Assembly (NCBI GenBank): GCA_001799635.1 | Contig: MGTV01000008.1 | Span: forward strand, 879-64,878 | Length of the DNA stretch: 64,000 bases | DNA from: Elusimicrobia bacterium GWA2_62_23 | Lineage (GTDB): Bacteria > Elusimicrobiota > Elusimicrobia > Elusimicrobiales > UBA9959 | Direction: 5' to 3' | Part shown: positions 35,974 to 62,700 of the stretch, in pieces | Layout of the letters: every line of letters starts with the position of its first letter | Numbering within the stretch: the stretch's first letter is position 1 | Made by a program: the position numbers and the translations under genes | Notes under the pieces: model-generated | Database searches by the model: none | Told to the model about the DNA's origin: nothing | What the model saw: only the letters and a program-made list of their open reading frames with translations

Positions 35974-35991
35974 AATAACGGGTTCGCACTT

Positions 35992-38046: not shown

Positions 38047-38084
38047 CGCCGGTTTTAGTACAGGGAAAGTCACAAGGAGGCAGT

Positions 38085-39230: not shown

Positions 39231-39341
39231 GCGGTCATCATACTCCTCCTTGGTGCCCGCCGGGATTCCCGGCGGGGGTGGGTCGGGTTAAAGAAAACTT
39301 AAAAGACGGGTCAAATTGATTAAAGATATAATTTAAAACTT

Positions 39342-42300: not shown

Positions 42301-43601
42301 TAATCTCTACCTCTGGGCAGATCATTACGCTGGGCCCGGGCAACGGCACGGCTGCGCCCGGCGCGCGTGGCCATGGCGCAGTAGATCTGCAGAATTACAG
42401 GACCGACGCCTCTTCGGTGGCGGCCGGTGCCTATTCCGTGGTTGGCGGCGGCCGCAACAACAGGGCCGCAGGTCCTGATTCCGTGGTGGCCGGCGGCCTC
42501 AATAATACGGCAGCGGCCGGAGACTATAACACAGTTTCCGGCGGTTCGGGCAACAGGGCTTCAGGGGCCTGGGCCGCCACTATAGCCGGCGGCGACACAA
42601 ACAGCGCGCTCGGCGCGGCCTCTACCGTTTCCGGCGGCCTTGAGAACGCTGTTGCGGACTACTATTCGGTGGTGGCCGGCGGCTACCGCAATACCGCCAC
42701 CCTGGAGGGCGCCTCGGTATCCGGCGGTACCAATAACTCGGCGGACGGCTATTATTCCGCCGTTCTCGGCGGCAGCTATAACTGGGCCATAGGCGATTAT
42801 TCCGTGGTGGCCGGCGTTTCCAACCTGGCCGTGCAGAACGAGTCCGCGGCCCTCGGCGGCTCGGATAATATAGCTGGCGGTTTCGCTTCGGTCGTCCTCG
42901 GCGGCGAGAATAACGTGGCAGGAGGCAACTACTCTTTCGCGGCGGGCCTCAAGTCCTCTTCCACGGCCGAAGGTTCCTTTACCTGGTCGGACGCCGAAGG
43001 GACCTATAATTACAACTCCGTGGCCAACCGCACCGTGTTCAAGAACCGCGGCGGCTTCCTGGTTACCGGGTCCACCAACCCTGCCATGACCGGCCTGCTG
43101 GACCGCGGTATGCTGGTGACCGGCGCGGGGCGCGTGGGTATTTCCACGGGGACCCCCGGGGCCGCGCTGGACGTTGTGGCGGACGGTTCCGCGGCTACGG
43201 ATTTCGCCCAGATCTGGCGCAACGCCTCGGGCGTGGAAGTGGCCTCCATGAGCGCCACCGGCGTGCTGTACGCCACCCTGCCGCCCGGTACCGGCGACGA
43301 CCTGGGCAACCACACGGCCACGCAGAACCTGAACCTCAACACTTTTAATATCGTCAACGCCTCCTCCGCCACTTTCAGCCAGGCCGTTACCGTCTATTCC
43401 AGCGTGACCGTGGCCGGCAGTGCGTTCAGCGTGGGCGGCTCCACCCTTACGGTGAACAGCGGTAAAGTGGGCGTGGGCCTGGATAACCCCACTTACAAGT
43501 TCGAAGTGAAGGATAACGCTACCACTTTCCAGGTGAACCCTCAGGGCGGTTACGTAAGCCTGCTGGTGGGGGGAGTGGAAGTGGCCAGGATGAAGCCGTA
43601 G
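39342..43601 (+). CDS. Large secreted fibre/adhesin-like protein (1419 aa): neck modules plus YadA-head-like GGxNNxAxGxxSxV repeats
   Basis: Signal peptide, six DxLGxHxATxxLxM motifs, three ALDVV...IWRN..GVxVASM neck modules, and two ~377-aa tandem super-repeats rich in GG-x-NN-x-A-x-G repeats. Confidence 0.75.
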   Translation: MFRGGRSKKTIFAGAACGVFFRFSLAALLFSLFFVPAARAQNNTELGAEDDFTVLGIDGVAADPDAEIKGFTVFGATQTAYPGIAAGPGNVAVNGFLSVSSGAYFAKTATFTALGNIFVNDGTSGYYVRKNTGGWLEWGTPDSIGDSLGLHVASQTLNMAGFSLVNASSINYLSNVYLTSAPAAQYGGLYVSTHVYTPGSVYAFKYYGDGSALAGLPQGDSLGTHVATQALNMNGFGVFNAGGLTSNGQATVYSSATILGLTGVKDLYAAGISSFTSSVYFTGVSSYSSVANVHYAGGNPGQVLTKVEGGGMQWSTPSSLVSGDSLGSHVATKTLDMAGFAITGVSTVTVSSITTTAAGLTVSTHLYVMNGDLGVGTSQPRARADVTGNELRLGPVGYPASYSVTNSGYLVIDKSGTAGDASIVFRDQGNARAEIGIVTDNDIHFKTVTGSYGSETFTDRLLIRGTGEVDAFGLLRSYATSGVARVFAGNSDGATAGAALELSYDFGSSLSRITSIERGNVYRDLLVEGNNLRFQTGSAALAEAMRVTTEGTVGIGNTLPLARLDVVSTGTASNIYAQVWRNGGGVVVASMTSQGILHATLAPGVGDNMGNHTATRDLDLAQFGISNVSTISATGLYISGYGVIQTTGTGLGGVAVNPRGTGAVDLQTYRTATSQVASGDYSFIGSGRENTTDADYAFIGAGYNNTVWAFGGVIGGGRNNSSEGMYSAVGGGYGNTAGQGAWGDTVAGGESNTAMGGASAIGGGYLNIINNYSESVIAGGSYNGISASYAAIGGGTGNSVTGNYGVVPGGSYNTAKGAYSFAAGRGSSSTASGAFTWSDSNVWVETVNNVPNRTWFKNIGGFLVSGSTNTAMTGLLDRGLLVTGAGRVGISTGTPGAALDVVADGSAATDFAQIWRNASGVEVASMSATGVLYATLPPGTGDDLGNHTATADLNMAVHSVVGVASMTMVGKGLQIGTDLTASASGVLISTSGQIITLGPGNGTAAPGARGHGAVDLQNYRTDASSVAAGAYSVVGGGRNNRAAGPDSVVAGGLNNTAAAGDYNTVSGGSGNRASGAWAATIAGGDTNSALGAASTVSGGLENAVADYYSVVAGGYRNTATLEGASVSGGTNNSADGYYSAVLGGSYNWAIGDYSVVAGVSNLAVQNESAALGGSDNIAGGFASVVLGGENNVAGGNYSFAAGLKSSSTAEGSFTWSDAEGTYNYNSVANRTVFKNRGGFLVTGSTNPAMTGLLDRGMLVTGAGRVGISTGTPGAALDVVADGSAATDFAQIWRNASGVEVASMSATGVLYATLPPGTGDDLGNHTATQNLNLNTFNIVNASSATFSQAVTVYSSVTVAGSAFSVGGSTLTVNSGKVGVGLDNPTYKFEVKDNATTFQVNPQGGYVSLLVGGVEVARMKP
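41940..42203 (+). repeat. Near-identical coding repeat, copy A (partner 43071-43334, offset 1131 bp = 377 codons)
   Basis: Base-by-base comparison by eye gives roughly 20 mismatches over ~264 bp, almost all at third codon positions. Confidence 0.85.
43071..43334 (+). repeat. Near-identical coding repeat, copy B
   Basis: See copy A. Confidence 0.85.
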
Positions 43602-43636
43602 TTCCGCAGACGTGCTTTAACGCGTGAGGATAATTT

Positions 43637-44182
43637 ATGAAGACCCTGTGTTCAGCTCTCTTTTTCGCGGCGATCTTTGCCGCCGTACCGGCTGCGGCCG
43701 CCGATACCGAGGATACCCTGCGGGCGCAACTCAAATCGGCCTCTACGCCTGAGGCCAGGCGCGCTATCATGGACCAGATAAAGCAGGCCCGCGCGGTTTC
43801 CCGTCCCGCCGCCGCGCCCGCGGCCCAGGCGGACCCCGCCGCCCGCCGGGCCAGGATGGAAGAATCTCTGAAGGACGATCCCGAGCGCCTGGCCGAATTC
43901 CGCCTGCAAGAGTCCCTGCGCGCCGCCAGGACCCCGGAAGACCGCGCGGCCATACGCAAGCAATTGGAAGAGAAACGCGCCGCCCGCGCCGCGAAGGCGG
44001 AGGCCGCGTTGACCCCGGAGCAGAAAGCCGTGCGCGCCCAAAGAGCGGCCCAGGCCGCCGCCATGCGCGCCGAAATGCAGCCGCTCAGGGAGCGCCTGCG
44101 CGCCGCCGCTACGGAAGCGGAGCGCGATTCCGCCAGAGAGGCCCTGCGCGCGGTGCAGGAAAAGTACCGTGCCAAGCCTTGA
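43637..44182 (+). CDS. Secreted Ala/Arg/Glu-rich helical protein, possibly Spy/CpxP-like (LTxxQ)
   Basis: GAGGA Shine-Dalgarno, signal peptide, highly helical low-complexity sequence, one LTPEQ motif. Confidence 0.45.
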   Translation: MKTLCSALFFAAIFAAVPAAAADTEDTLRAQLKSASTPEARRAIMDQIKQARAVSRPAAAPAAQADPAARRARMEESLKDDPERLAEFRLQESLRAARTPEDRAAIRKQLEEKRAARAAKAEAALTPEQKAVRAQRAAQAAAMRAEMQPLRERLRAAATEAERDSAREALRAVQEKYRAKP

Positions 44183-44213
44183 GGTGACTTAAAGTTTTAT
44201 TGGAGATAAACGG

Positions 44214-47200
44214 ATGAACCTAGTAACTTGCGCCAGATCGAGGGTCCCCGGGAGAAGGCATGTCTTCTTCTGGGCCTTGGCGCTTGTCCTGGCGGCCCTG
44301 CCCGCTCTTAATGCCGCTGAATTCGAGACGGTGGATAAGCTTACCGCTAATGGTTTCTCCCTGTTGAAGTCCTCCGCCGAGGTACGCGGCCTGCTGGGTG
44401 TTTCCACCGGCGTGCCTTACGCCGCCCTGGACGTGGTCTCCACCGGTACGGCCTCCAATATCTACGCGCAGATCTGGCGCAACGGCGGCGGTGTGGAAGT
44501 GGCTTCCATGACTTCCACCGGCGTGCTCTACGCCACCTTCCCGCCCGGCGCCGGCGGGGACCACCTGGGCAACCACACCGCTACCGCCGACCTGAACATG
44601 ACGGCGCACAGCGTCCTTTCCGTGGCCTCGGTGACCATGGTGGGAACCGGCCTGCAGCTAGGCACGGACCTCACCTCTTCGGCTAACGGCCTCTTTATTT
44701 CCACCGCCGGCCAGGTCTTTACGCTGGGTCTTGGTAACGGCGCGGCGCTGCCTAACGCTCGCGGCATCGGGGCGGTAGACCTGCAGACTAAACGCACAAC
44801 TTCCGTGCAAGTGGCCAGTGGGACCTATGCGGTCATCTCGGGCGGCTACGCCAATACCGCTTCCGGAGACGCCGCGGCAGTGGCCGGCGGCTGGGGAAAT
44901 ACCGCTTCAGGCCTCAGGTCTTTTGCCGCCGGCAACGGCAATACGGCTTCCGGAGCGTATGCTTCGGTGACCGGCGGCACCGACAGCACCGCCTCTGGCA
45001 GCCACGCCGTGATAGGAGGCGGCAACACCAACGAGGCGTCCGGTGACCATTCAGCGGCGCTGGGCGGCCTGTGGAGCACGGCTTCCGGCAATTACAGCGC
45101 GGTAGGCGCAGGCTATCAAAATACCGCATCGGGCAGTTACAGTTCCGTCCTTGGCGGTAATACCAATACGGCCGCCGGCGGCTCGTCCACGGTGTTCGGC
45201 GGCGAGGAGAATGTGGCGCAGGGTTTCGGTTCCCTGGCCGGCGGCATGGGGTACAACTACGCCGGCGGAGATGACTCCATAGTCCTGTCGGCCTATAGCA
45301 CCACTACCGCTTATGGTTCCGCCATAGTGGGCGGCGAGGACCATTTCGCCAGCGGCGACCATTCCGCGGTAGTGGGAGGCTATGACAATACTGTCTCGGG
45401 GGACCAGGCTTTTATCGGCGGCGGCGACACCATAGACGTCAGGGGAGAGTATTCGGGGAACGTGGGCGGCCGCTACAATATCGTGCACGGCAGCAATTCA
45501 TTCGTGGGCGGCGGCAGCAATAACCAGGCTTTCGGATTCTATACCGCCATACTTGGCGGAGATTTTAACTGGGCCTACGCCAACGAGTCCGCCGTTGTCG
45601 GCGGCAACGCCAACGGCGCTTACGGAGAGGCGTCCGCCATACTCGGCGGCGTTAATAACCGGACCTATGGTTTTGGCTCTATAGTTCTCGGCGGCGACCG
45701 CAATCACGCCGCCGGCGACTATTCGCTCGCGGCCGGCCGCACCTCCTCTTCCACCGCCAATGGTTCCTTTACCTGGGCCGATTCTCAGGGCGGGACCACT
45801 GTAAGGACCATAAACAATATAGCGGACCGCACTTTATTTAAGAACCGCGGCGGTTTCATGATAACAGGTTCCACCAATACCTATATGACCGGGGGCGGTG
45901 ACCGGGGCGTGCTCGTGACCGGCGACGGTCTGCTGGGCATTTCCACCGGCGTGCCTTACGCCGCCCTGGACGTGGTTTCTTCGGCCACCGCCAGCAACGT
46001 TTACGCTCAGATCTGGCGCGACGGGGGCGGCGTCATAGTGGCGTCCATGACGTCGCAGGGCACGCTTTTTACCACCGCGGTAGGCAAAGGCGACAACCTG
46101 GGCAACCACACGGCCACGCAGAACCTGAACATGGTCGCCTTCGGGGTCAATACTTCCAGCGCCGTTACTGCGGCGTCTTACCAGATCGCGGGCAGCACGG
46201 TGCTAGCCATCCTTGGGGGAGACGGCAGCATCGCGGTGGGCCCCAATTCCAGCGCTTTCAGTACCGGCAACTACAACGTTTTTGTGGGTTCCGGCGCCGG
46301 CCACTCCAACACCAGCGGCCGCCGCAACACCTTTGTGGGCGCCGCCGCCGGATATTCCAACGATAACGACCAGATCAACACCTTTATCGGCTCGGAGTCC
46401 GGCTACAGCAATAACGCCGGTTGGGGCAATGTTTTTGTGGGAGATACCGCCGGCTATTCCAACACCAGCGGCTCCGAGAATACCATCATGGGCGGTTACA
46501 TGACGGGTTACGAGAATACCAGCGGTTGGGGCAACGTCTTCCTGGGTAACTACTCCGGGCAGAGCAATACCGAAGGAGACAAGAACACCTTTATCGGCTA
46601 CGGCTCCGGTGAGTTCAATGTCACGGGAGAAGGCAACGTCGCCGTTGGCTACAGCGCTGGTGACGCCAATGAGGCTGGCTCATTTAACGCCATTCTGGGA
46701 CATGAGGCAGGCTACAGTGTGGAAAGTTCCAGCAACACGCTCATGGGGTACCGTTCCGGATACAACCTGTGGACGGGCGGCAGGAATATCCTTCTGGGCT
46801 ATCAGGCCGGTTACAACTTGGAATCCGGAGCCGGTAATATCGTTATAGGCTACGACAGGAACGCCTCCGCGGAGAACGCTTCTAACGAACTTAACATCGG
46901 TGACGTCCTGTTCGGTAAACTGGACGACAGGACCATCGGCATCTCCACGCGCGTGCCGCAGGCGGCTTTGGATATCGTCTCCACCGGGACTGCGGCCAAT
47001 GTCTACGCGCAAATCTGGCGCAACGGCAGCGGTGTGGTGGTGGCGTCCATGACGTCGGAAGGCAAGCTCTTTGCCGACGGTTCCGGGCTTACCGGGGTGA
47101 ACGCGGCCACCGGCGGCACCGGGGGGGACAACCTGGGCACGCATATAGCTACACAGACCCTTAACATGTCCGGTTTCGATATCGTAGGGGTAGCGACAAT

Positions 47201-47705
47201 AACCGTTTCTGGCTATGTCGGCATTAGCACAGCGGTCCCGCAGGCGGCCCTGCATGTGGTGGGCGGAGGGGCTTCCTATGCCAACGCGCTTATAGTGGAT
47301 ACCCAGAAGGCCGACGGCGGGACCATAATCCTCGGCAATGATAGTGATTCCGGGGACCAGGTCCGTGTGGGCGTTAACGGGTACCTGCGGTCCCAGGCAG
47401 GTCGTTTTGGTATAGATACCACCGGTAATCCGCTTACCTTCGAGATATCCGAGTCGGAAAAAATGCGCGTAGCCGCCAGCGGGGCGGTGGGTATTGGAAC
47501 TAACAACCCTCTGGCGGGACTGGAAGTGAGGTCTTACTCTGACGGCAATTACACGGCCGTGGTGTCCACCTCAGCCACCGCGGGGATATACAGCGTAGCC
47601 GTGAGTTCGACCGGCATCACGCACGTGAACAATTTGGTGATCGAGAATCGCACTTCGGACCCTGCTGCCCCGGTTACGGGCCAGATCTGGTTCCGGGTGG
47701 ATTAG
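44214..47705 (+). CDS. Large secreted fibre/adhesin-like protein (1163 aa) with neck modules, YadA-head-like repeats and a ~15-aa GxxNTFxGxxAGYSN repeat array
   Basis: Signal peptide. Neck modules near 44400, 45940, 46940 and 47230. Three DxLGxHxAT motifs. About 13 tandem 15-aa repeats at about 46240-46860. Confidence 0.75.
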   Translation: MNLVTCARSRVPGRRHVFFWALALVLAALPALNAAEFETVDKLTANGFSLLKSSAEVRGLLGVSTGVPYAALDVVSTGTASNIYAQIWRNGGGVEVASMTSTGVLYATFPPGAGGDHLGNHTATADLNMTAHSVLSVASVTMVGTGLQLGTDLTSSANGLFISTAGQVFTLGLGNGAALPNARGIGAVDLQTKRTTSVQVASGTYAVISGGYANTASGDAAAVAGGWGNTASGLRSFAAGNGNTASGAYASVTGGTDSTASGSHAVIGGGNTNEASGDHSAALGGLWSTASGNYSAVGAGYQNTASGSYSSVLGGNTNTAAGGSSTVFGGEENVAQGFGSLAGGMGYNYAGGDDSIVLSAYSTTTAYGSAIVGGEDHFASGDHSAVVGGYDNTVSGDQAFIGGGDTIDVRGEYSGNVGGRYNIVHGSNSFVGGGSNNQAFGFYTAILGGDFNWAYANESAVVGGNANGAYGEASAILGGVNNRTYGFGSIVLGGDRNHAAGDYSLAAGRTSSSTANGSFTWADSQGGTTVRTINNIADRTLFKNRGGFMITGSTNTYMTGGGDRGVLVTGDGLLGISTGVPYAALDVVSSATASNVYAQIWRDGGGVIVASMTSQGTLFTTAVGKGDNLGNHTATQNLNMVAFGVNTSSAVTAASYQIAGSTVLAILGGDGSIAVGPNSSAFSTGNYNVFVGSGAGHSNTSGRRNTFVGAAAGYSNDNDQINTFIGSESGYSNNAGWGNVFVGDTAGYSNTSGSENTIMGGYMTGYENTSGWGNVFLGNYSGQSNTEGDKNTFIGYGSGEFNVTGEGNVAVGYSAGDANEAGSFNAILGHEAGYSVESSSNTLMGYRSGYNLWTGGRNILLGYQAGYNLESGAGNIVIGYDRNASAENASNELNIGDVLFGKLDDRTIGISTRVPQAALDIVSTGTAANVYAQIWRNGSGVVVASMTSEGKLFADGSGLTGVNAATGGTGGDNLGTHIATQTLNMSGFDIVGVATITVSGYVGISTAVPQAALHVVGGGASYANALIVDTQKADGGTIILGNDSDSGDQVRVGVNGYLRSQAGRFGIDTTGNPLTFEISESEKMRVAASGAVGIGTNNPLAGLEVRSYSDGNYTAVVSTSATAGIYSVAVSSTGITHVNNLVIENRTSDPAAPVTGQIWFRVD

Positions 47706-47773: not shown

Positions 47774-50700
47774 ATGTACGTCATGAACGAGTGCAGATAT
47801 AACAACCGTTGCTCTCGCTCCCGTATCCGTATGGGAGCGGTTTTTGCCGCTTTGTTGTTATCGTCTGTTCTTTTTGCGCCTGAGGGGGTTCGCGCGCAGG
47901 CCGTTCCGGACGGTATAGTTTCCTCCAAGTCCACCTCAACCTGCCATAATACCAATTCTTTTAATTTCTATTCGTCCTTCTCTGGAGCTTCCTATTACCG
48001 CTATGTCTGGGATACCAGCCCTACCCATACCTGGACGCACGCGGAAACCCAGTGGAGTTCCGGAGTCCTTAACCTTACGGCCGCCTCCGAAGGAACCTGG
48101 TATTTTCACGCTATGGCGTATGACAGCGGGGGGGTGCCGGGAACGGATATTCACCTGCCTCTGATCTACGATATCACTCTCCCTGTCGTTTCAGGTTTTT
48201 CCAGCCTGAATTCATCCGGCGGGACCGTGACCGAAAGCCAGTACAATAACCTGGCTTCCGGGGTTACCGTACAGATCACCGTGCAGGACGCTCTGGCGGG
48301 CCTGATAGTGACCACCGCTGCGGTACCTGGCGACATGCTCGGATTTCCCGGGGGGGTCTCCGTGGCGTATTCCAACGACGCCGGGCGTAACTGGGCCTAC
48401 GACACTGTAGTTTTAAGTTCTGATGGCGCTAAAACTTCGATCTTCTGTCTGGCAGTCTACAACGGCAGACTTTACGCCGGGCAGACTGGCAGCACTGGGG
48501 ACGGTGACGTGCTGGTATATGATGGCTCTTCCTGGAGCGTCAGCTACAACGGGTCCCAGACCGGTATCTACTCCCTGGCGGCCTATAACGGCAAACTTTA
48601 CGCTGGGCAAGGTCAGGGCACCGGGCTTGGAGATATTTACGTTTTCGACGGTGCCTCCTGGTCCCTTAATTACGACACTTCACGCGATATCACAATATCC
48701 ATGGCCGTTTATAACGGCAAACTCTACGCAGGCTGGGGCGACGACCTTGGAGAGGGTGACATCTATGCCTATGACGGCACTTCCTGGGTTTTTAGTTACA
48801 ACGGCGGCCAAGAGTATATACGTGCCCTGGCGGTATACAATAACAAACTTTACGCCGGGCAGGGCAGCGGCACTGGAGACGGCGACGTGCTGTCATACAA
48901 CGGGACTTCCTGGGGAACCAGTTATAATGGGGCACAGGAATACATAACATCGCTTTCGGTCTACAACGGCAAACTCTACGCCGCCCAGGGCAGCAGTACC
49001 GGAGACGGTGACGTATTTGTTTATGACGGTTCCTCGTGGACAACCAGTTATAACGGTTCGCAGGAAGTTGCCTACTTGGGGGTCTACGGCGGCAAATTGT
49101 ACGCGGGTGAGGGCACGGGCACTGGTGACGGCGATATGCTGGCTTTCGACGGGACCCGCTGGGGCCGCGTCGCGAATACGGATTATTCCTATGTTTACGC
49201 CCTCACGGGTTATGATGGGAGTCTCTTCACAGCCATGGGGAGCGGCACTCCCATGGGAGATATTTTGCGTTCGGCCCCTGCCGCCCCGGCAACGCTGACC
49301 GGTACCGACGGCACCACGGCGGCGCAGACCCTGTCGGCGGTGGTAAGTCTTTCCGCGTCCACCAATACGCAGACCTGCGCCGGGGCGGAGCCCTGCGGGG
49401 CCACCAACCAGGTGATCTTTACCGCCATGGACAGGGCCGGGAACGTGCGCCGCGCCGGGCCCTACGCGGTGCTGCTTTCCGTTACTCCTTCCGCGGCCGA
49501 GGTGGTTCCGGGGAAATCCACCGGGGTCTGGTACCATACCAGTTCCTTTACTTTTTCCTCGTCTTTCAAGGACGCGGCGTATTACCGGTACGCCTGGGAT
49601 ACTTCCGCCACCCATTCCTGGACTTATTCGGAACCGCAGTGGACGGCCTGGGTACTGTCCCCGGCCGGAGTTTCAGGGGCCGCCGGAAACTACCTGCACC
49701 TGCTGCCGTACAACATCGAGGGGACTTACGGGACCTCCCGGGATATAGGGCCGTTCTATCTGGACGCCTCTTCCCCGGTGGCGTCCGGCTTTGTCAGTTA
49801 CAGCTCTACCGCCGGCGTAATGGGTGAGGCCCAGGTGAATGGCCTGCTTTCCGGGGTCACCGTGCAGGTGACGGTTCAGGACATTCTCTCCGGCCTGTTG
49901 CTCAGCACCGCGGCGGTGCCGGCGGACCTGGCGGCCGGGCCCGGCGGTTTCGGGATGATGTATTCACAGGATTCCGGAACCACCTGGACGGTGAACGTGG
50001 CTTCCGTGTCCTTTGACGGTGCTGAAGAATATATCTTCGCGCTGGCGGCCTACAACGGGAAACTTTACGCGGGTCAGGGGAACGGGACCGGCAACGGGGA
50101 CGTTTATGTCTACGACGGAGTTTCCTGGAGCCTCAGCTATGACGGCGCCCAGGAAGCCATCTATTCCCTCGCCGTCTATAACGGCAAATTATACGCCGGA
50201 CAGGGATACAGTACCGGTGACGGGGATGTGCTGGTTTTTGACGGGTCGACCTGGGGCGTTTCTTTGGATAACCCTTTTGTTTCTTATGTTTACGCCATGA
50301 CCGAGTTCCAAGGTAAGCTATACGCCGCCTTCAGTAGTCCCGGATCTGTCTATTCTTTTGACGGGTCCTCCTGGACCAAGGTCTACGACTACAATACCAC
50401 GCTCGCCGACATGGCGGTGTACGACGGTAAACTGTACCTGGCCGCCATGTATTATATCCTGGTTTTCGACGGCAACTATTGGGGGATAACCTATGACGCC
50501 GGCGCTACGTATGTAAAGAAATTGGCCGTTTACAACAACAGGCTTTACGCCGGCCTTGGGGGTAGTACCGGTACCGGCGACGTGCTGGTGTACGACGGCA
50601 AGTCCTGGGCGATGAGTTTTGACGGTACCCAGGAATACATTGTTTCTCTCTTTCCTCACGACGGCAGGCTTTACGCCGGCCAGGGGAGCGGCACTGGGGA

Positions 50701-53700
50701 CGGCCGTATTTATGTTCTCAACGGCGCGACATGGACCCTGGCTTATTCCGGCCTGCAGGAGTATATCTATTCCATGGCGGCCTATAACGGAAAGCTTTAT
50801 GCCGGACAGGCCTACAGCTCCGGGGACGGCGACGTGATAGAATTTGCCCCCGCTTCCTCGGTGACCCTTAGCGGGAGCGACGGTTCCGTGGTTCCGCAAA
50901 CCCTTGCAGGCACGGCTAATTTTAAACTGTCTGCCACGGCGGACACCTGCTCCGGGACCTTCCCTTGTTCTGCCACTAACCAGGTCATTTTTACCGCTAC
51001 TGACAAGGCCGGCAACGTGCGGACGGCCGGTCCTTATGCCGTGCTGGTAGCGGGGCCGCCAAATTCTTCGGACGTTGACGCGCTCAAATCCACCGGCGTA
51101 TGGCATTCTTCCGGCACGTTCCCCTTCGTTTCCGGTTTTTCCGCCGCGGCTTATTACCGTTACGTCTGGGATAACTCGGTCTCCCATGACTGGACGGGCG
51201 GTGAAACGCAGTGGCCTTCGGGCGTTTTGTCGCTCGACGCGGCCGCGGAAGGAGCGGACTGGTATTTCCACGCCGTGCCGTACGACATCCTGGGCAGTTC
51301 CGGCCCCGACCGGCACATAGGGCCGCTCCGCTTCGACGCAACGCCGCCGGCCGTTTCCGCTTTCGCTTCTTTCAGTTCTACCGGCGGCTTGCTGGGGGAA
51401 TCTCAGTTCAACGATCTCCTGGCGGGGGTTACGGTGCAGCTGGTGGTACAGGACCTCCTGAGCGGCCTGGCGGTCTCGACCTTGGCGCCGGTTACCGAAC
51501 TTCCGGGAGGGCTGCAAGCCTTTTCCGTGGCTTATTCCAGCGACGCCGGACATGCCTGGAACACGCTCTCAACCGCTACCAGTTATAACGCTTCCCAGGA
51601 GGCGTTTTACTCGCTCGCGGTTTACGGTCAGAAGCTTTATGCCGGGCAGGCAAGCGAGGCCGGGGACGGGGACGTTTTCTCCTTCGACGGAACTTCCTGG
51701 GTGAAGACGTTCGACGGCACGCAGGAAACTATTTCCTGCCTCGCGGTTTACCAGGGGAAACTTTATGCCGGCCAGGGAACCGGCACCGGGGACGGGGACG
51801 TCTACGTTTATGACGGGATTTCCTGGCAGTTGAGTTATGACGGGCCGCGCAACATTATTTCCTCCCTCGCGGTTTACAAGGATAAACTCTACGCCGGCCA
51901 GGGCAGCAGTTCCGGTTACGGGGACGTGCTGGTGTTCGACGGCAGTTCCTGGAGCGTTTCCTATGACGGGGCGCAGGAATATATTTTTTCCCTCGCCGTG
52001 CACCAGGGGAGGCTTTATGCCGGACAGGGGAATGGCGCCGGGGACGGGGATGTGCTCGTTTACGACGGCATCAATTGGACGGTCAGTTATGACGGCGCCC
52101 AGGAGATTATAAACACCCTGGCCGTTTACGATGGCAAACTGTATGCCGGGCAGGGATACAATGCCGGGGATGGCGACGTGCTGGCCTTCGACGGGACCGC
52201 CTGGGGCGTTTCTTATGACGGGACCCAAGAAGGTATTTATTCACTGCAGCAGCACGGCGGTAAACTTTACGCCGGCCAGGGCAACGGTTCCGGAGACGGA
52301 GATCTCCTGGTCTATGACGGCGCCTCCTGGACCCTTGCCTGGAACGGGCCGCAGGAGGGCCTCTATTCCCTGGCCAGTTACAAGGGGCGCCTTTACTCCG
52401 GGCAGGGCATTTCTTCTGGCGACGGAGATGTCCTGGAGTTCTCTCCTTTCCCCGCCGTCCTGTCGGGCGCGGATGGGACCATTGCTCTGCAAACGGCCTC
52501 CTCCACGGTGCGCCTGGCCCTTTCTTCCAATACCCAGACCTGCGGCGGCGTAGAGCCTTGCGGAGCCACCAACCAGGTCCGTTTCTATTTTGCCGACCTG
52601 GCGGGAAATGTCACCCGGGCCGGTCCGTTTGCCGTCGTCACCCGGATCCCGCCTTCCGCCCAGAACGTAGTTTCCCTGAGATCCACGGGGACATGGTACA
52701 ACGCCGCGGCGGGTGATTTTACGTTCACTTCCGACTTTCAACAGGCGGTCTATTACCGTTACGCCTGGGACGCCTCTCCCACACGCGTCTGGGCTCATGA
52801 CGAAACACAGTGGCTTTCAGGAAATCTTGCCCTGGCGGGGGCGGACGGGCAGGACCGGTACCTCCACCTCCTGCCCCATGACCTGTCTGATTCCTCCGGT
52901 ACCCCTGTGGACCTCGGGCCTTTCCGGCTGGACAGCACCGCCCCATCCGTTTCCGGCTACAACTGGGTGAGTTCCACCGGCGGCCTCATGTCGGAAAGCC
53001 AGTTCCTTACCCTCGCGACAGGCGCGACTTTCCAGGTGTTGGCCCAGGACTCGGCTTCCGGCCTCATGGTCTCGTCCTATATTCCCACGGTGGGTTTTGA
53101 GGGCGGCAGCCTGCCCTCGGGCTTTTCTTCCGGCGGCAATCTGCCCTGGACGGTATCTTCTCTTATCCCCTACGCCGGCTCTTACGCGGTCCGTTCGGGG
53201 AATATCGGCAATTCCCAGTCTTCCTGGCTGCGCTTCCAGGGTGAATTACAGGCCGGCTTCCTGAATTTTTGGTTCAAATTGAGTTCCCAGAGTTCCTCCG
53301 ATTACCTCCGGTTCTATATAGACGGGGAGCAGCGGAGTGCGTGGAGCGGTGTTCTTGCCTGGAGCGAAGTGAGTTACGAAGTGGCGGCTGGGCAGCATAT
53401 CCTGGAATGGGTCTACGTCAAGGACGCTTCCTCTTATTCCGGTGATGACGAGGCCTGGGTCGACCAGATAACTTTTCCTGGCACTTACATGGCCGCTGAA
53501 TATTCCCTGGACGCCGGGACAACCTGGGCGGAAGTCCGGGATTTTTCCGCCGGCGCTATCCCGGGCCTGGCTTTGACCGGAGTCAATGGTACTGTGGCCC
53601 AGCAGACGGCATCGCTCTTTTCTCCCGCGTTCAAGGTTTCCACCAACACCCAGACCTGCGGCGGCGTAGAGCCTTGCGGGGCTACCAACCAGATACGTTT

Positions 53701-56700
53701 TGGCATCCCGGACCGCGCGGGGAACACAACCTATGCCGGGCCCTATGCCGTTCTGTTAACTCTGGCCCCCGAGGCGTCCGATGTGGCAGTTTCTAAGTCC
53801 ACCGGGGTATGGCACAATACCAGTTCTTTTACCTTCACTTCCGCTTTCCCTACGGCCGTCTATTACCGCTACGCGCTTACCAATTCTCCGGCTCATGTCT
53901 GGACGTTCTCCGAAACGCAGTGGCTGTCCGGAGCCCTTACGCTGGAAATCCCCGCCGGCTCTTCCGATTGGTATTTCCACGCCCTTCCTTACGATATCCT
54001 GAACGGTTCCGGCACTCCGGCTTCGCTTGGTCCGTTCCGCGTGGAAACGGCCTCTCCGGCTCTTTCAGGTTTTTACGTCTACAGTTCTACCGGCGGCATT
54101 TTTCCGGAGGGGGAATTCGTGGACCTTGCCGCCGGGGTTACGGCCCAGATCCTGGTGCAGGATGTTCTTTCCGGCCTGCTGGTTTCCACTTCCGTACCGC
54201 CTGCCGGCGGAACTTACGGCCCCGGCGGTTTTGGCGTCCTGTTCAGCAAGGACGCCGGGCAGACCTGGAGTTCGGATTTGCCGGCGACCACCTTTAACGG
54301 AGCGCAGGAGTATGTTTTTTCCCTGGCCGCCTACGGCGGTAAACTTTATGCCGGCCAGGGCATAGGCACTGGGGACGGCGACGTGCTGGTCTTCGACGGA
54401 AGTTCGTGGCAGATAAGTTATAACGGCACACAGGAGGTTATCCGCGCCCTTGTGGTCTACGACGGCAAACTTTACGCCGGACAGGGCAGCGGTACAGGTG
54501 ACGGAGATGTGCTGGTATACGACGGCAATTCCTGGGCGGTGAGCCATGACGGCTCCCGTCCCTCCGTCCTTTCCCTCTCCGTATATGCCGGCCGGCTTTA
54601 CGCAGGCCTGGGGGGATCCACCGGGGACGGGGACGTGATGGTGTTCGACGGCAGCTCCTGGACGTTGAGCTACGCTGGCGCCCAGGAGGGCATTTACTGT
54701 CTGGCCGTTTATGACGGAAAACTTTACGCCGGCCAGGGTTACAGTAATACGGACGGGGATATTTACGTTTTTGACGGCGTCTCCTGGACTAAAAGTTTCG
54801 AAGGATCTTCATACTTTATTCGCTCGCTGGCGGTTTATAACGGGAAACTTTATGCCGGCCAGGAGGGGTCGTCTACTACTGGCGGCGATATTTATTCCTT
54901 CGACGGGAAGTCCTGGATTAACGTCTTCGAAGGTGTCGGCTACGGCGTACAATCCCTGGCCGTTCATGATGGCAAACTTTATGCCGGCTTGGGGAAAGAA
55001 TCCTACTCTACGGTCGCGGATATATATGTGTTTGACGGGGTCACCTGGCGGCAAATGCATGACGGACCTGACGGGTTTGGTTATTTCGCGCTGGCCCCTT
55101 ACAATGGGCGCCTCTACGCGGGGAGCGGCTGGAGCGGGGATATCCTTGTGTTCTCCCCGGCGGCGGTCTCCTCGCTGACCGGGACGGACGGCACGGCTTC
55201 CCAGCAGACGCTTTCAACCCGTCTCGACCTGCGGACCTCCACTAATACCCAGACCTGCGGCGGCATTTCTCCGTGCGGGGCCACTAACCAGGTAAAATTC
55301 TTTGCCATGGACCTGGCCGGCAACGTCGCCATGGGCGGGCCCTACGCGTTGCTGATCTCCAGCACTCCCTCCGCCGACGACGCCTGGGTTTCCGTCTCCA
55401 CGGGGGGGTGGTACACCGCCGTCCCGCTTTCGGTCTTCTCCCCGTTCTCACGGGCGGCCTATTTCCGCTACAGCCTGGACGCGGCCGCCTCCCGGGAATG
55501 GACCTTTGCCGAACCCGTGTGGTCCTCCGGGACACTTTCGCTGGGGATCCCCGCCGATGGTACGGACTGGCACGTCCACCTGCTGCCTTATGACCTGCTG
55601 GACAGTTCCGGCGCCGCCCGCTCTATAGGTCCGTTCAGGTATGACGCCCAGCCGCCGGTCTTCTCGGCTTTTGCGTCCTACAGCTCCACCGGGGGGCTCC
55701 TGGGTGAGGCGCAGTTCAATGACCTGGTCTCGGGAGTAACCATCCAGATCTCCGTACAGGACGTCCTCTCCGGTCTGCTGGTCAGTTCGGCCGGAGTTCA
55801 GGGCTGGGGACCCTTTGCTCCCGGAGGTTTCCGCGCCGAATACTCCGCCGATTCCGGTGCCACCTGGCAAGAGGATACCCTTTCTGTTTCTTTCGACGGT
55901 GTGTTCTATGAAATAACCTGCTTTGCGGTTTATAACGGCAAACTTTACGCCGGGCAGGGGCGATACAGTGGGGCGGGGGATATTTACGCTTTTGACGGGG
56001 TCTCCTGGACTTTGGTTTATAACGGTTCCTATGACGAGGTTTCCTCTCTGGCCGTGTTCGAGGGAAAACTTTATGCCGGTATGGGGAACGCTTCCTCCTC
56101 CGGGGATATTTACGTGTATGATGGCGCTACCTGGGTGCTTTCTTACAACGGCCAGGCGAGTTCCGTGCACGCGCTCTCCGTTTACGGAGGCCGGCTTTAC
56201 GCCGCTCTTGGCGGCTACGCGGGGGTGGGAGACATCCTGGTGCATGACGGTGCCGCCTGGAGCGTATCCTATGACGGCGATTTGACCTACGCTTATGCCC
56301 TGGCTGTTTACGAAGGCCGCCTTTACGCGGGTTTCGGCGGCAGCACCGGTGATGGTGACATAATGGCCTATGACGGCCATTCCTGGACGCTCAGTTACGA
56401 CGGTTCCCAGGAAGGCTTCTTCTGTCTTGCGGTGTACGACGGAAAACTTTACGCCGGTCAGGGCAACGGCAGCGGCGACGATGATACTTACGTCTATGAC
56501 GGCAGTTCCTGGAGCCTTAGCCGCGCCGGCAGCGGCTATATAGTGTATTCGCTGGCCGTTTCGGGCGGGCGTCTTTTCTCGGGCGGAGGTTTTCCTCCTA
56601 ACTACGGGGGCACCGCTCCTTCCGACATCTTCATCTATGACGGGTCCGCCTGGACCCAGCTTTACGACGGAACCGGCCTCTATGACACGGTTTCCGCCCT

Positions 56701-59700
56701 TGCCGCCTACGGCGGCCGCCTCTACGCCGGTATGGGTGACGACTCCGGGAAAGGCGACATCCTGGCCTTTTCTCCGGTTGCGGTAGCGTCCATGACCGGA
56801 ACGGACGCTTCCACTTCCCAGGAACTGCTGCGGCTTTCCCTGGATCTGCGGGCTTCCGTCAACTCGGTCACCTGCGGCGGCGTGGCGCCCTGTGCGGCCA
56901 CCAACCAGGTCCGCTTCAAGGCCTCGGACATGGCAGGCAATGTCGTCCATAGCGGTCCCTACGCCGTCATAACTTCCCCGGAGCCTGACGCCTCAGAAGT
57001 GACCGCTTCCCTTACTACCGGGACATGGAATACGGCCAGTTCCAGCGCGGTGTTCTCTTCCTCTTTCCTGAAGGCCGCGTATTACCGTTATGTCTGGGAC
57101 ACCTCCGCGTCCCACGAGTGGACTTATGCCGAGTCCGCCTGGACGTCTGCGGCCCATTCTCTTTACCTGACGCCCGTGCCCGGCGCGGCGAATTGGCTTC
57201 ACTTGCTTCCCTATAACGTTTCTGACAGTTCGGGCTCCCCGCGGGACATCGGCCCTTTCAACTTCGACGGCGATCTTCCGGCCGCGTCCTCTTTCGCTTT
57301 TAGAAGTTCTACCGGAGGCCTGCTCTCTGAACCTCAGTTCTCCGATTTGTTGTCAGGAGTTACCGTGCAGCTCTCCTGGCAGGACCCGTCTTCCGGGCTT
57401 GCCGTAAGCACATACACCCTGTCCGGCCTGCGATATTCGAATGACGCCGGCGCCACCTGGGTCCCTTACCAGTGGGAACAAATACGCACCGGGCTGGATA
57501 CTCACGTACACGCGATGGCGGTTCATCAAGGGAAGCTGTATGTGGGCACCGGGTCTGGGACAGGGCGGGTATACTCTTACGACGGTTACGCCTGGGCACT
57601 GGTCTATGACGGCCCGGACTCCTACATGAATGCCCTGGCCTCTTACAATGGTCTCCTCTTCGCCGGCGGAGACTCCGGCAATGTGATGGTCTATGACGGC
57701 AATTCCTGGAAACTTTCTTTCGACAGTCCAGCGGAAACGGTCAAATCATTCCAGGTCTATAACGGCAAACTTTACGTTGGTACGGGTTATAACACCGGCG
57801 CTGTTTACGCTTATGACGGCGCAAGCTGGGTGTTCAAATTTTCCTACGCCGACGAGGTGAGTACCATGGCCGTTTATGACGGCAAGCTTTACGCTGGCTT
57901 CGGCAACGACTCCGGCGAAGGCGATATCTACGCTTATGACGGCTCCTCCTGGGTTCTTTCGTACAACGGCTCCGGTTCCAGCGTAATGTCCCTCGCCGCG
58001 TACGCGGGGAAACTTTACGCAGCAATGATCACTACCTGTGAGATCTACCAATTTGACGGTACTGTCTGGTCCCTTAATTTCACCGGCGGCGGGAACTTTT
58101 TCCCAAGCCTGGTGGAACATGACGGCAAACTTTATGCCGGTCTGGGATACGGTTCCGGGGAGGGAGATGTCTACGAATTCAACGGCAGTTCCTGGAGCAG
58201 CTCTTTTAACAGTTCCGAAGACACGGTTGGCGCCATGGCCGTGTACCGCGGTGAAATTTACGTGGGGACCGGATATCATGGCCATATCTACAAGTTGCGG
58301 TCCTATTCTGTCCCTGAGGTTACCGGGGTGTCCGGCACTACGGAGCAGCAGGTCATGTCCGGCCTTGTTTCTCTGTCGGCCTCCACCAACACCGAAACCT
58401 GCGGCGGCGCCGCCCCCTGCGGGGCCACCAACCAGGTTAAATTCTACGCGGCCGACACCGCGGGGAATCTTAGTTTCGCGGGGCCGTACGCGGTGCTGGC
58501 CGCCCCGGAGGCTTCGGCCGCGGACGCAGCCGCGAATTTCTCTACCGGGGCCTGGACCAGCCGCAGCACTTTTTCTTTCAACTCTTCTTTCATCCAGGCG
58601 GCCTATTACAGGTATGTCTGGGACGCTTCGCCCGCCAGGGAGTGGGTTTATACCGAGCCGCAGTGGCTCCCTTCTTCCGCAACTCTTTCTTTTCAGGCCG
58701 CGGAAGGGGCCAACTACCTGCATCTCCTGCCTTACAACGTTTTGGGTTCTTCCGGGGCTCCCCGGGACCTCGGGCCTTTCCTTTTTGAAGCCGCTTCTCC
58801 CACCGCGGCGGCTTTCTTTACCATAAGTTCTACCGGTGGCGCCCTCAGCGAAGCCCAGTTCAATGCCCTTGTGGAGGGCGTTACCGCGCAGCTTACGGTG
58901 CGCGACCTGCTCAGCGGCCTCAGCGTTTCTACCTGGGCCGCCGTATATGAGGGTTTTGAGACCGGCACCCTGCCGCTGGGTTGGGAAACCGGCGGGAATC
59001 TGCCCTGGTATACGCAATCAGGGGTTCAGTTCGCAGGTGGCCACGCCGCCAGGGCCGGGCTTTTGGCGCCTTCGCAGGTTTCCTGGCTGCAGGCGACGGT
59101 GCAGAATTTCGTCCCGGGACAGTTTTCTTTCAGACGTTATGGACAGGCCGGCGATTCCTGGTTCAGGTTCTGGATAGACGGGGCCTCCAAGGGCTACTGG
59201 TTTGCGGAAACCTCCGGCTGGGTGCAGGAAAGTTACGCGGTTTCCGCCGGGTCCCACACCTTGCTTTGGCAGTATCTTACTAATTCCAATCCCGGCCTCA
59301 ATCTCCTTCTCCTGGACGATATCACTTTCCTGCGGCGACCTTCCTGGGCGGAGTACTCACTGGACGCCGGGGTTACCTGGAAACAGGCCGGGACCGTTTC
59401 CCTTACCGGCGCGGAAGGCAGTACGGAAGACCAGACCCTGAGCGCCCTGTTCACGCTGCGCGCTTCTTCCAATACCGAAACCTGCGGCGGGTCCTCTTCT
59501 TGCGGTGCCACCAACCAGGTCCGATTCTATGTTTCCGACCAGGCCGGGAACGTGAGGCAGGCGGGGCCTTTCGCCGTTATAACCTCGCCTGTTCCGCACG
59601 CTTTGGACGTGCAGTCAGGCAGGTCCACGGGCACCTGGTACAGCGTGCCCAAATTCACGTTCCAGTCTGAGTTCTTTGGCGCGGCCTATTACCGTTACGT

Positions 59701-62700
59701 CTGGGACACCTCCGACTCTTACGAGTGGACGTACGCCGAACCGCAGTGGGGAGCGGGGAACCTTTCACTCTCCGCGGTCACCTCCGGCGCCGGCTACTAC
59801 CTGCACCTGCTGCCTTACAATGTTTCCGACAGCAGCGGGGCACCCCGGCACCTGGGGCCGTTCTTCTTCGAGGGAGACATCCCTTCCGGGTCTTCTTTCG
59901 CCACCGTCAGTTCTACCGGAGGACTTCTTTCCGAATCCCAACCCACCGCGCTTTCCGCCGGGGTCACGGTGCAGTTCACCTTGCAGGATGTTCTCTCAGG
60001 GCTGTTGGTCTCGGAGGGGGGCGCTCCTTCGGAATATCCTTTCCAGGCCGGAGGTTTCAGGATTTCATACTCCCGGGACGCGGGCGCTACCTGGTCCTCC
60101 GAAAGTACGGTAGTTTCTCATTACAGTTCGGCTATTGGCGTGCATTGCCTCACGGTTCATGACGGTAAACTCTACGCGGGGCATGGGGAGGACGACGAAC
60201 TCGGGCAGGGCGACATTTTTGTGTATGACGGTTCCTCCTGGTCGTTGAGTTATGAAGGCCAGGAGGTCAGCATCCGCGCCCTGGCATCCTACGGCGGCAA
60301 ACTATACGCCGCACAGTACGGCTGGGACGAGGGAGATGGGGATATCCTGGTGTTCGACGGTGGGAGCTGGTCCGTCAGCTATGACGCCGTGGTCTACGGG
60401 GGTATCGAGTCCCTGTGGGCTTTCGGCGGGAAATTATACGCCGGTACGCTAAGTTGGGATGTCCTGGGGGATATCCTGGTCTTTGACGGCGGTTCCTGGA
60501 AACTGGACTTCGCCACGGGCAAGGACGCGGTGGCCGCTTTCGCTACCTACAACGGGGAACTCTTTGCCGGGGTCGGCTACGATGACGCCAACGGGAACGG
60601 GGACATTTATGTGCGCCGAGGCAATTCCTGGGAGGGTTCCTTCGACGGCAATGAGATTTCCATCCGGGACTTCGCCGTTTACGGCGGAAAACTTTACGCC
60701 GCGCAGTACGGCTGGGATACCGGAGACGCCGTGCTTCTGGTCTATGACGGGGAGCAATGGACCCAGCATTCCACTTTTGACGTCTATGTCGGCGTAGCGA
60801 GTTTGTCCGTGTATAACGGGCGGCTTTTCGCGGGTATCGGGGACTTTTCCTGGGATCCGGACGGGGAAGTTTACTCATACGACGGCGAGGTCTGGACCAG
60901 GATCTATGACGGCGCTAAGATGGCCATAAAGGACCTGGCAGTGTATGACGGCTCCTTGTACGGCGCCGAGTACGGCTATTCGCCGGGAGAGGCTTCCGTG
61001 CTCAGACTTTCCGACCCGGTGCGGGCCTCCATTACCGGCTCCGACGGCACTACCGCCGCGCAAACGTTTTCCGCGGTTCTGGACTTGTCGCCCTCGGCGG
61101 ACGGGGCCGTCTGCGCGGGTGTTGCTCCCTGCTCCGCCACCAACCAGGTAAAGTTCACCGCCACCGACAGGGCTGGCAACGTGGGGATCTACGGGCCGTA
61201 CGCCGTTATAGCCGCGTCGGCGGCCAGCGCCGCGGACGCGGTAGCGGAACGTTCCACCGGCGCCTGGCACAATACCCCCGGTTTCTCGTTCCGCTCCGGT
61301 TTTGGCGGCGCGCTCTACTACCGGTACGCCTGGGATACTTCCCCTTCCCGCTCCTGGACCGGCACCGAGCCGCAATGGACGTCCACTTCCCCTGCTCTTC
61401 ACGTGAGGGCCGCCGCCGAGGGCGCCGATCATTACCTCCACCTGCTGCCGTATAACTACCTGGACGGGGAAGGCCCCCCCAGGGACATCGGCCCGTTCCG
61501 GTTTGAAATGGCCGCGCCCGCGCCCTCAGGTTTTTCCAGCGTAAGTTCCACCGGGGGCTACATGTCCGAATCCCAGGAGAACGACCTGGCCGCCCAGGTG
61601 CAGGTCCGTCTTTCCCTGCAGGATATCCTCAGCGGGCTTTCGGTACTGCCCGACGCCCCGCATGGCCCGGCCGGGTTCCCGGCCGGGGGGTTCTCCGTGC
61701 GCTACTCTAACGACGCCGGCGCCACCTGGTCCGCGGGGGTGGCCTCCCTTTCCTTCGCCGGCCCGACCGAGGATATCACCGCCCTGGCCGTTTATAACGG
61801 CAAACTTTACGCCGGACAGGGTTACGACGACATGGACGATGAAGGCGACGTTTACGTGTACGACGGCAACGCCTGGGCGCTGAGCCTTAACGGGTATAAA
61901 GTGGCCATACGCTGCCTGGCCGTCTATGACGGCAAACTTTACGCGGGGCAGTACGGCTGGGAGTACGGCGACGGGCGCGTGTACGTTTTTGACGGTAATA
62001 CCTGGGAGATCTCCCTGGCCCCTTCGCTTGCGATCTCCGCGCAGGACCTGGCCGTGTATAACGGCAAGCTCTACGCTGGCCTTTACGGCTGGTGGGACGA
62101 TGACGAAGGGGATGTTTATGTTTTCGACGGTAAGACCTGGCGGATCAGTTTTGACGGCATCACGGACGGTATCGCCGCCTTGGCCGTATACGACGGCAAG
62201 CTTTACGCGGGCGAAGGCTATTGGGGCGACACAGGCGAGGGAGATGTGCGGGTTTTCGACGGTAATTCCTGGAAACTTTCTTTTGACGGCGGCGCCACCA
62301 CTATAAATTCCCTGGCTGTTTATGACGGCAGGCTTTTCGCCGGTCAGACCGGAGCCGGCGGGGACGGGGATGTCTATGTCTACGACGGTTCTGCCTGGGT
62401 GCTTTCCCTGGATGGGGAGACCGAAGGCTTCAGTTCGCTGTGCGTTCATAACGGCCGGCTCTATGCCGGTGCCGGTTACTGGGGATCGGAAGGCGACGGG
62501 GATATGTACGCTTATGACGGTGCCTCCTGGAGACTTGAATTCGAGGGGCCGGCCGCGGCGATACGCGCCATGGCGTCTTACGGCGGCGCTCTTTATTACG
62601 GCGAAACAGGCTATGACCCCGGCGACGGCCGCGTAATGCGCCTCTTGGATAGCCCCTCGGCCGCCCTGACGGGCACGGAGGGCACGGCCTCTCCCCAGAC

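Follow-up and report, generated by a model that had tools for sequence, protein, structure and literature searches.

The groundwater bacterium Elusimicrobia bacterium GWA2_62_23 appears to encode a giant Sec-secreted protein of 5,586 residues that carries eight independent, closed 7-bladed beta-propellers. Its gene lies on the + strand at the end of the 64,000-nucleotide stretch analyzed here (the window), which holds residues 1-5409. We give a probability of roughly 60% to the full reading, in which a 42-residue unit forms a four-stranded blade, each ring is closed by a 3+1 velcro, the propeller is an exchangeable cassette in an 11-fold supermodule, the repeat belongs to an uncurated extracellular family, and the protein has an adhesin-like, multivalent binding role. 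The features on which this reading rests are as follows.

47774..64000, + strand: giant gene, from the frame-open open reading frame (ORF) and the gene calls on the source contigs
47774..47902, + strand: putative Sec-type signal peptide region (MYVMNECRYNNRCSRSRIRMGAVFAALLLSSVLFAPEGVRA, then QA), read off the translation
48437..49285, + strand: propeller array 1, seven blades (seven consecutive matches to the blade model described below, on which arrays 2 and 4 to 8 rest as well)
50030..50851, + strand: propeller array 2, seven blades; blades 3 and 4 are short (36-38 residues) and lack the GDGD loop
51602..52447, + strand: propeller array 3, seven blades; the array that was modelled (translation, Tandem Repeats Finder, blade model, structure prediction)
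54311..55159, + strand: propeller array 4, seven blades
55910..56776, + strand: propeller array 5, seven blades
57503..58300, + strand: propeller array 6, seven blades; the most divergent, with the GDGD loop gone in most blades
60137..61012, + strand: propeller array 7, seven blades; longer YGWDxGDGD-type loops
61772..62644, + strand: propeller array 8, seven blades
51572..51589, + strand: N-terminal strand TATSYN before blade 1 of array 3 (DSSP strand at residues 5-10 of the model)

The blade repeat and its ring

In-frame translation of 51602-52447 gave the repeat that an initial annotation of this DNA had described, with the consensus LAVYxGKLYAGQG...VYVYDGSSW. A hidden Markov model (HMM) of the blade was derived from six array 3 units and run over the polypeptide with one iteration. 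This blade HMM found exactly 56 units, in eight runs of seven and nowhere else in the polypeptide, with per-unit E-values from 4e-25 to 1e-4. The eight arrays of seven units are those of the initial annotation, to within a few codons; its unit of ~41 amino acids (aa), or ~123 bp, was slightly too short, since the usual unit measures 42 aa or 126 bp, with a range of 36 to 48 aa. Tandem Repeats Finder reported a period of 126/252 in array 3 only, at 70-73% matches, so the DNA repeats are old. The initial annotation had also left room for more than eight propellers. Because just ~177 aa of the product fall outside the window, there are exactly eight.

All 17 arrays of the giant protein and of a complete 5,722-aa homologue, P0057, consist of exactly seven units each. 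Blades within an array are 48% identical, which indicates that blade amplification is old. Between arrays, identity is 0.48 for blades at the same position and 0.46 for blades at different positions; we looked for positional orthology of blades across arrays and, given these values, found none. Two explanations fit: module duplication took place while the blades were still near-identical, or a single consensus constrains all of them. Array-level orthology between the giant protein and P0057 is weak except for the pairs W8-H9 and W7-H8. Distant homologues conserve only core structural positions (LAVYxGKLYAG ... YxYDGxxW), and the GDGD and DGxQE loops are restricted to the close family.

We modelled array 3 with 14 upstream residues (51560-52462) by AlphaFold2 (AF2); the input alignment comprised the eight arrays and 30 homologues. 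The predicted structure is a closed propeller, with a predicted local distance difference test score (pLDDT) of 93.9, a predicted template modelling score of 0.93 and 28 strands according to DSSP. Four strands recur per blade: A, IxSLAVY; B, KLYAGQG; C, (D)VYVY; and D, WxLSY. When the model was compared with the PDB by Foldseek, the top global superpositions were 7-bladed propellers with template modelling (TM) scores of 0.72-0.79, among them WRAP-T, a Thermomonospora WD40, beta-TrCP and COPB2. Six-bladed Kelch structures reached 0.55-0.62 and 8-bladed designs 0.62-0.65. We confidently predict from these results that each array is a closed 7-bladed beta-propeller, as had been proposed from the repeat alone. 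One 42-residue unit would then make one four-stranded blade, with I-x-S-L-A-V-Y as strand A, K-L-Y-A-G-Q-G as strand B, a G-x-G-D-G-D loop, V-Y-V-Y-D-G as strand C and W-x-L-S-Y-D-G as strand D.

The last unit differs from the others. In every array, the seventh unit stops past its third strand and ends in GD(V/I)LxFSP. The initial annotation saw this ending correctly and took it for degeneration, but its simplest reading is a 3+1 velcro closure rather than decay. TATSYN, the first strand of the array 3 model, lines up with SYDGxQ at the tail of the repeat. An equivalent segment, SxSFDGxxE, precedes most other arrays, most clearly arrays 2, 4, 5 and 8. The seventh unit would give strands A-C, and the segment ahead of blade 1 would give strand D; in array 3, TATSYN is probably the fourth, outer strand of blade 7.

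Place among propeller families

When the arrays, linkers and N-terminus were scanned against Pfam and NCBIfam, nothing reached threshold, array 6 scanned singly excepted; Big_3_2, OmpL47, BNR and CBM_35_2 appeared as weak hints. When the arrays were scanned singly, seven of the eight had no Pfam match at E<=0.01. Array 6 marginally passes PQQ_2 (PF13360; 29.0 versus 27.6 bits, E = 1.1e-6) and also Reg_prop (PF07494; 22.5 versus 20.4 bits). For PQQ_2, the other seven arrays gave no match at E<=0.01, nor did the four that were scanned to E<=10. An idealized consensus of seven identical units scored 20.5 bits on Kelch_3 (cutoff, 22), 19.2 on DUF6242 (cutoff, 29) and 16 on WD40 (cutoff, 27). Scores on the WD40 model PF00400 were 16-16.7 bits, and the window arrays reached 10-19 bits on DUF6242 (PF19755), against the same cutoffs. 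No natural array matched a Kelch model of Pfam at E<=0.01, and the best score was 15 bits on Kelch_6 versus 25.3. There was no Pfam match to YVTN or NHL, and the TRIM2 NHL domain appeared at just E = 0.3 when a profile was run against PDB sequences. The blades carry Y-D-G-S-S-W, one residue short of the Asp-box hairpin S-x-D-x-G-x-T-W.

We considered whether the repeat is a divergent, shortened Kelch, which would make the arrays Kelch propellers of a described superfamily. A Kelch blade has 44-56 residues, a hydrophobic run, a GG doublet, and a spaced Tyr and Trp. In the window repeat, the hydrophobic run, Y and W are there, G-x-G stands for GG, and the unit is usually 42 aa long. The likeness to Kelch proteins such as KEAP1 and IVNS1ABP/KLHL39, and to the models Kelch_1-6, Kelch_FKB95 and Beta-prop_KIB1-4, covers four-stranded blades, a hydrophobic strand A, G-x-h-Y-h-h-G in strand B and Y-D...W leading into strand D. 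Kelch propellers are also protein- or ligand-binding platforms, as those of the window may be, but the latter sit in an extracellular context, eight to a chain.

Profile searches gave results that depend on the breadth of the profile. We used a broad profile of 38 family members (A1) and three narrower ones, built from the eight window arrays (A2), 48 full blades (A4), or the window arrays plus homologues with E<1e-30 (A5). Against PDB sequences, A1 matched Kelch proteins in register: SAKe6FR at 1.9e-13, IVNS1ABP at 7e-11 and KEAP1 at ~7e-6, with the Kelch domains of KLHL22, KBTBD and LZTR1 following in the range from 7e-6 to 6e-3. GkLYaGtg aligned with GHIYAVGG, and YDg..sW with YDPETDTW; no WD40 was among the best 60 of its 78 matches. 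In hhalign, A1 gave 94% for the IVNS1ABP Kelch and 37% for an Ika8-like WD40. A2, A4 and A5, in contrast, found no Kelch protein at E<=1, and hhalign of A2 reversed the order, with 4% for IVNS1ABP and 91% for the Ika8-like WD40. Taken by themselves, the matches of the broad profile would read as proof of Kelch membership, but we rejected that reading, as neither the narrower profiles nor hhalign reproduced them. We conclude from these comparisons that the Kelch link is carried by more distant relatives, and it is those sequences in A1 from which the signal may stem. Kelch_FKB95, KIB1-4 and Kelch_6 do appear below threshold in homologues, and the idealized consensus comes close to the Kelch_3 cutoff. 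However, no natural array reaches the cutoff of any Kelch model, the unit is shorter than is usual and has G-x-G for GG, the matched Kelch structures have six blades rather than seven, and they superpose at merely 0.55-0.62. Membership in Kelch is therefore a minority view that we regard as unlikely.

A placement in the PQQ/BamB-like or WD40-like branch draws on other evidence. Array 6 exceeds both the PQQ_2 and the Reg_prop cutoffs, and several homologues bear the Joint Genome Institute (JGI) label "BamB." Propellers of the PQQ_2/BamB and Reg_prop types are bacterial, associated with the envelope and used in protein binding. Phmmer of array 3 against PDB sequences found only the WD40-derived designs Ika8 and Ika4 (5e-7), which together with the hhalign result for A2 points to WD40. 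Among global fold matches, 7-bladed WD40 domains rank best, and the symmetric designs Ika8, Tako8 and WRAP-T resemble the arrays in their high internal symmetry. The WD40 turn S/G-x-D-G-x-h-x-h-(W/Y)-D, too, resembles GDGDVYVYD of the window repeat. Yet seven of the eight arrays lack the PQQ_2 match, and BamB itself, a periplasmic lipoprotein, is a single propeller of eight blades. PF00400 stays at 16-17 bits versus 27, and the consensus has neither GH nor WD dipeptides and thus no GH...WD signature. With the narrow profiles, natural WD40s in the PDB were insignificant (E = 0.016-0.5). Ika8 is an idealized symmetric design, which inflates repeat-on-repeat scores, and Foldseek likeness among 7-bladed propellers is generic. 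We consider this placement a weak candidate, and quite improbable.

The initial annotation had called the repeat no Kelch, WD40, YVTN or NHL that it could recognize, and possibly an undescribed blade family. The first statement holds in that no array reaches those cutoffs, but A1 matches Kelch and A2 resembles a WD40-derived design. The second holds for the seven arrays that lack a curated match, but array 6 passes PQQ_2, A1 hits Kelch, and close homologues pass DUF6242. Judging by the sequence comparisons, we conclude that the repeat falls within the PQQ/WD40/Kelch continuum and has no confident assignment to one curated family; "uncurated subfamily inside the PQQ/WD40/Kelch continuum" should fit it better than "undescribed blade family."

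Via these close homologues, the nearest Pfam family by sequence is DUF6242. Four of them, P0074 (71 bits), P0028 (44), P0030 (42) and P0072 (39), pass its cutoff of 29, with matches that span only the last ~70-90 of 217 model positions (~128-217). DUF6242 is the family of Bt3727/BamH. This lipoprotein belongs to the BAM complex of Bacteroidetes and is exposed at the surface, and in it an Ig-like domain precedes a 6-bladed propeller (bioRxiv 10.1101/2025.01.31.636011). A phage DUF6242 protein superposes on the array model with a TM of 0.77. Unlike BamH, which is 6-bladed and a single-copy lipoprotein, the giant protein has eight propellers of seven blades each, and no lipobox cysteine is evident in its N-terminal sequence.

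The family is large. We searched 1.84 billion representatives of clusters at 50% identity with the profile of the eight arrays; 15,202 matched at E<=1e-3, 6,538 of them at E<=1e-10 and 825 at E<=1e-30. Many members are 2,000-6,400 aa long with 5-15 matched stretches, and the named sources include Elusimicrobia, Patescibacteria, Bacteroidetes, Dehalococcoidia, Eisenbacteria and a Promethearchaeota archaeon. The partner domains in homologues are all extracellular: LamG (Laminin_G_3), DUF2341, Big_12, FN3, dockerin, PG_binding_1, Ig_Rha78A_N and sorting tails of the type IX secretion system (T9SS). A single-protein search of genome contigs found two loci, both cut at contig ends. L002, from Elusimicrobia GWB2_63_16, has the same architecture as the window's protein. 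L001 (10001-10782 of JAOAFI010000052.1, a Patescibacteria metagenome-assembled genome) encodes LamG and then a propeller 64% identical to array 3; the contig has 26% GC and the propeller part 36%. These values hint at horizontal transfer or at very strong constraint. A broader picture, which we offer only tentatively, is that the repeat is a large uncurated family of compact 42-residue blades bridging PQQ/WD40-like and Kelch-like propellers, a lectin-like exchangeable head in giant surface proteins of Elusimicrobia, Patescibacteria (the candidate phyla radiation, CPR) and some archaea. Such a head may have spread horizontally, and its acidic GxGDGD loops would provide seven equivalent cation or glycan sites per propeller.

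Supermodules and a putative binding role

After the signal-peptide-like N-terminus, the giant protein is built of 11 supermodules delimited by a recurring GPYAVL motif. Eight of them carry a propeller (P) and are 509-545 aa long; the other three, of 361-380 aa, carry a jelly-roll-like domain (C) in its place. Their order is P P P C P P P C P P C (window 47903-63985, + strand). Each runs from domain A through segment B and an Asp-box to the propeller or jelly-roll-like domain and then segment C. Domain A is a beta-sandwich with STGVW..YYRYVWD, segment B has SSTGG..VQDxLSGL, and segment C, in the array 3 module, has LTGxDGT..TCGG.PCGATNQV..D.AGN..GPYAV. We delimited the following parts.

51047..52639, + strand: supermodule 3, 531 aa, from module boundaries and alignment
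51536..51559, + strand: Asp-box SSDAGHAW (S-x-D-x-G-x-x-W), ~14 aa ahead of blade 1 of array 3, from a motif scan
48371, 49964, 51536, 53504, 54245, 55844, 57437, 59357, 60071 and 61706, + strand: starts of the 10 Asp-boxes of the same scan, usually YSxDAGxTW
53090..53482, + strand: jelly-roll-like domain of ~131 aa in place of the propeller in supermodule 4, from module comparison
58943-59338 and 63314-63709, + strand: further copies of the jelly-roll-like domain, from module comparison

The Asp-box stands before every propeller and directly after the first two jelly-roll-like domains; after the third there is a variant, STSAGNNW, which lies outside the scan pattern. One Asp-box has a weak Pfam BNR match (20.9 bits versus 27). 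Since the motif occurs once per supermodule and outside the repeat, it is part of the scaffold domain rather than of the propeller repeat. For the jelly-roll-like domain, whose motif is GGNLPW...RFxIDG...W.Y.KD...WVDQI, searches of Pfam, NCBIfam and PDB sequences gave nothing but a weak CBM_35_2 match (E = 0.052). An AF2 model of supermodule 3 has a mean pLDDT of 78, with ~90 in domain A, 75-95 in the propeller, <50 in segment B and 53-72 in segment C. The post-propeller segment (e.g., 52448-52639) holds an invariant Cys pair in TCGG.PCGATNQV.F...D.AGN...GPYAV and has weak Big_3_2 and OmpL47-like matches; it may be a disulphide-stabilized Ig-like domain.

The propeller would thus be one interchangeable cassette of a supermodule repeated 11 times. 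In P0057 the supermodules read PPPPPPP C PP C, and an FN3 domain and a tail of ~70 aa come after them. The C-P-P-C block at the C-terminal end is common to both proteins, and the 177 residues past the window match the FN3 domain and tail of P0057 in length; by homology, the supermodules of the giant protein would likewise be followed by FN3 and a short tail. Because the orders of P and C otherwise differ, module content turns over among related Elusimicrobia.

We consider the giant protein most likely a multivalent adhesin or binding protein. It would be a cell-surface or secreted, adhesin-like molecule, in which the propellers are rigid heads for glycan or protein ligands mounted on Ig-like spacers, an arrangement that may allow multivalent and possibly multi-specific attachment. 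Several observations argue for this role. The N-terminus resembles a signal peptide, with a basic n-region, a hydrophobic core and a VRA-QA site (by eye from the translation), and the nearest Pfam family via homologues, BamH, is a surface-exposed lipoprotein propeller; both point to an extracellular binding function. Partner domains in homologues are extracellular, and three modules swap the propeller for a jelly-roll-like domain. The six adjoining genes code for secreted fibre-like proteins, one with a T9SS sorting domain. Finally, the closest viral fold matches of the array model include tail-fibre and baseplate-type proteins, with TM scores of up to 0.82.

Other results weigh against this reading. 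There is no conserved functional site, since distant homologues keep core structural positions only, and the near-equal blade identities (0.48 versus 0.46) are explained equally well by structural consensus pressure and by function. AF2 modelled segments B and C poorly, so the model does not define how the propeller is mounted, for instance whether by insertion into an Ig-like domain. The velcro contact follows from strand count and sequence register, not from coordinates. The C-terminal 177 aa lie outside the window, and ligand, binding site and localization are all putative.

An alternative is that the propellers bind no ligand and serve as rigid structural beads in a protein of a surface layer or sheath or in a spacer protein. 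All 56 blades are equally alike, their number per ring is strictly constant, distant homologues conserve only core positions, and the neighbouring genes encode fibre-like structural proteins. Against this, three modules swap the propeller for a jelly-roll-like domain, a typical binding fold, and family members combine the propeller with LamG, dockerin and PG-binding domains. We rate a purely structural role as improbable, and structural and binding roles are not mutually exclusive.

A catalytic role, such as that of a Ca-dependent nucleotidase/apyrase-like or oxidase-like propeller, is unlikely in the extreme. It is suggested by the best PDB match of A2, A4 and A5, the 5-bladed Ca-activated nucleotidase SCAN-1/apyrase (E = 6e-4 to 1e-2; SDLIVFNGKLYSV...W), and by the conserved acidic GDGD loops on the blades. 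But the SCAN-1 match spans one or two blades, with per-stretch E-values of >1, and SCAN-1 has five blades, not seven. Eight tandem copies with all blades alike would be atypical for an enzyme, and no catalytic-family model of Pfam or NCBIfam matches.

Giant multi-propeller proteins and single-blade amplification are already known, and the repeat is a compact relative of known families. RCC1-type giant genes of Oscillospiraceae encode many 7-bladed propellers per huge extracellular polypeptide (bioRxiv 10.1101/2023.11.21.568195), and propellers whose blades were amplified from a single unit are documented (PMC9218822). The window protein differs from the RCC1-type giants in its blade family and in that its propellers alternate with Ig-like and jelly-roll domains in a supermodule. 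In the literature on Elusimicrobia with Kelch, propeller or giant proteins, we found no description of the giant protein. It leaves current concepts of propeller biology unchanged, and its value lies elsewhere. Curated models leave unnamed a propeller that thousands of metagenomic proteins have, among them many giant surface proteins from uncultivated Elusimicrobia and members of the CPR; with a new family model, all of these would be annotated. The giant protein is also a clean natural case of hierarchical repetition: blades make up a 7-blade ring, the ring sits in a ~530-aa supermodule, and 11 modules form the chain, with propeller and jelly-roll-like domain swapped as cassettes. Such a case is useful for studies of giant-adhesin evolution and for repeat-protein design. 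If the propellers are lectins, they would be a pointer to how these bacteria attach to particles or other cells.

The reading frame and its neighbourhood

The frame is free of stops from 47543 to the window end at 64000. Gene calls on the source contigs give a product of 5,586 aa that starts at the equivalent of 47774 and ends ~534 nt past the window. Three other proteins of the window have exact matches that identify the organism as GWA2_62_23. GC at the third codon position of the + frame is 0.70, similar to that of the neighbouring genes. Long ORFs also lie on the opposite strand over the arrays.

50318-51553, 55448-56950, 57746-59017 and 61526-62908, - strand: antisense ORFs of 411-500 aa, with GC at codon position 1 (GC1) of ~0.68-0.73

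We rejected these as alternative genes. They are shadow ORFs, as all have the same phase relative to the + frame and a high GC1.

Repetitive regions are prone to misassembly, and the related loci L001 and L002 do end at contig ends within repeats. That the multi-array gene is an assembly artefact is nevertheless close to incredible. The arrays are 49-62% identical in DNA, and the longest exact word in common has 26 nt, which makes assembly collapse unlikely. The frame is uninterrupted across 16.2 kb, and the complete homologue P0057 has the same architecture. An adjoining gene of 1,163 aa is present on four contigs; the two loci listed for it come from separate groundwater metagenome projects, and both have the 5,586-aa gene call alongside. 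The repeat is thus genuine, a product of neither chance nor artefact.

The genes around it are the following.

34885..47705, + strand: six consecutive same-strand genes for secreted, repetitive, fibre-like proteins, upstream of the giant gene
34001-34723, - strand: OmpR-type response regulator (Trans_reg_C), divergent from the surface-protein cluster
4833-7133, + strand: hydrogenase maturation factor HypF (OGR52951.1), upstream within the window

None of the six fibre-like proteins has a meaningful Pfam match or resembles the giant protein. The first matches TIGR04183, the model of the T9SS type A sorting domain (26.2 versus 23 bits), and four of the six have common modules at 40-60% identity: GDSLGTHVATQTLNMAGF, AALDVVSTGTASNIYAQIWRNGGGV and GGxxNxAxGxxS runs.

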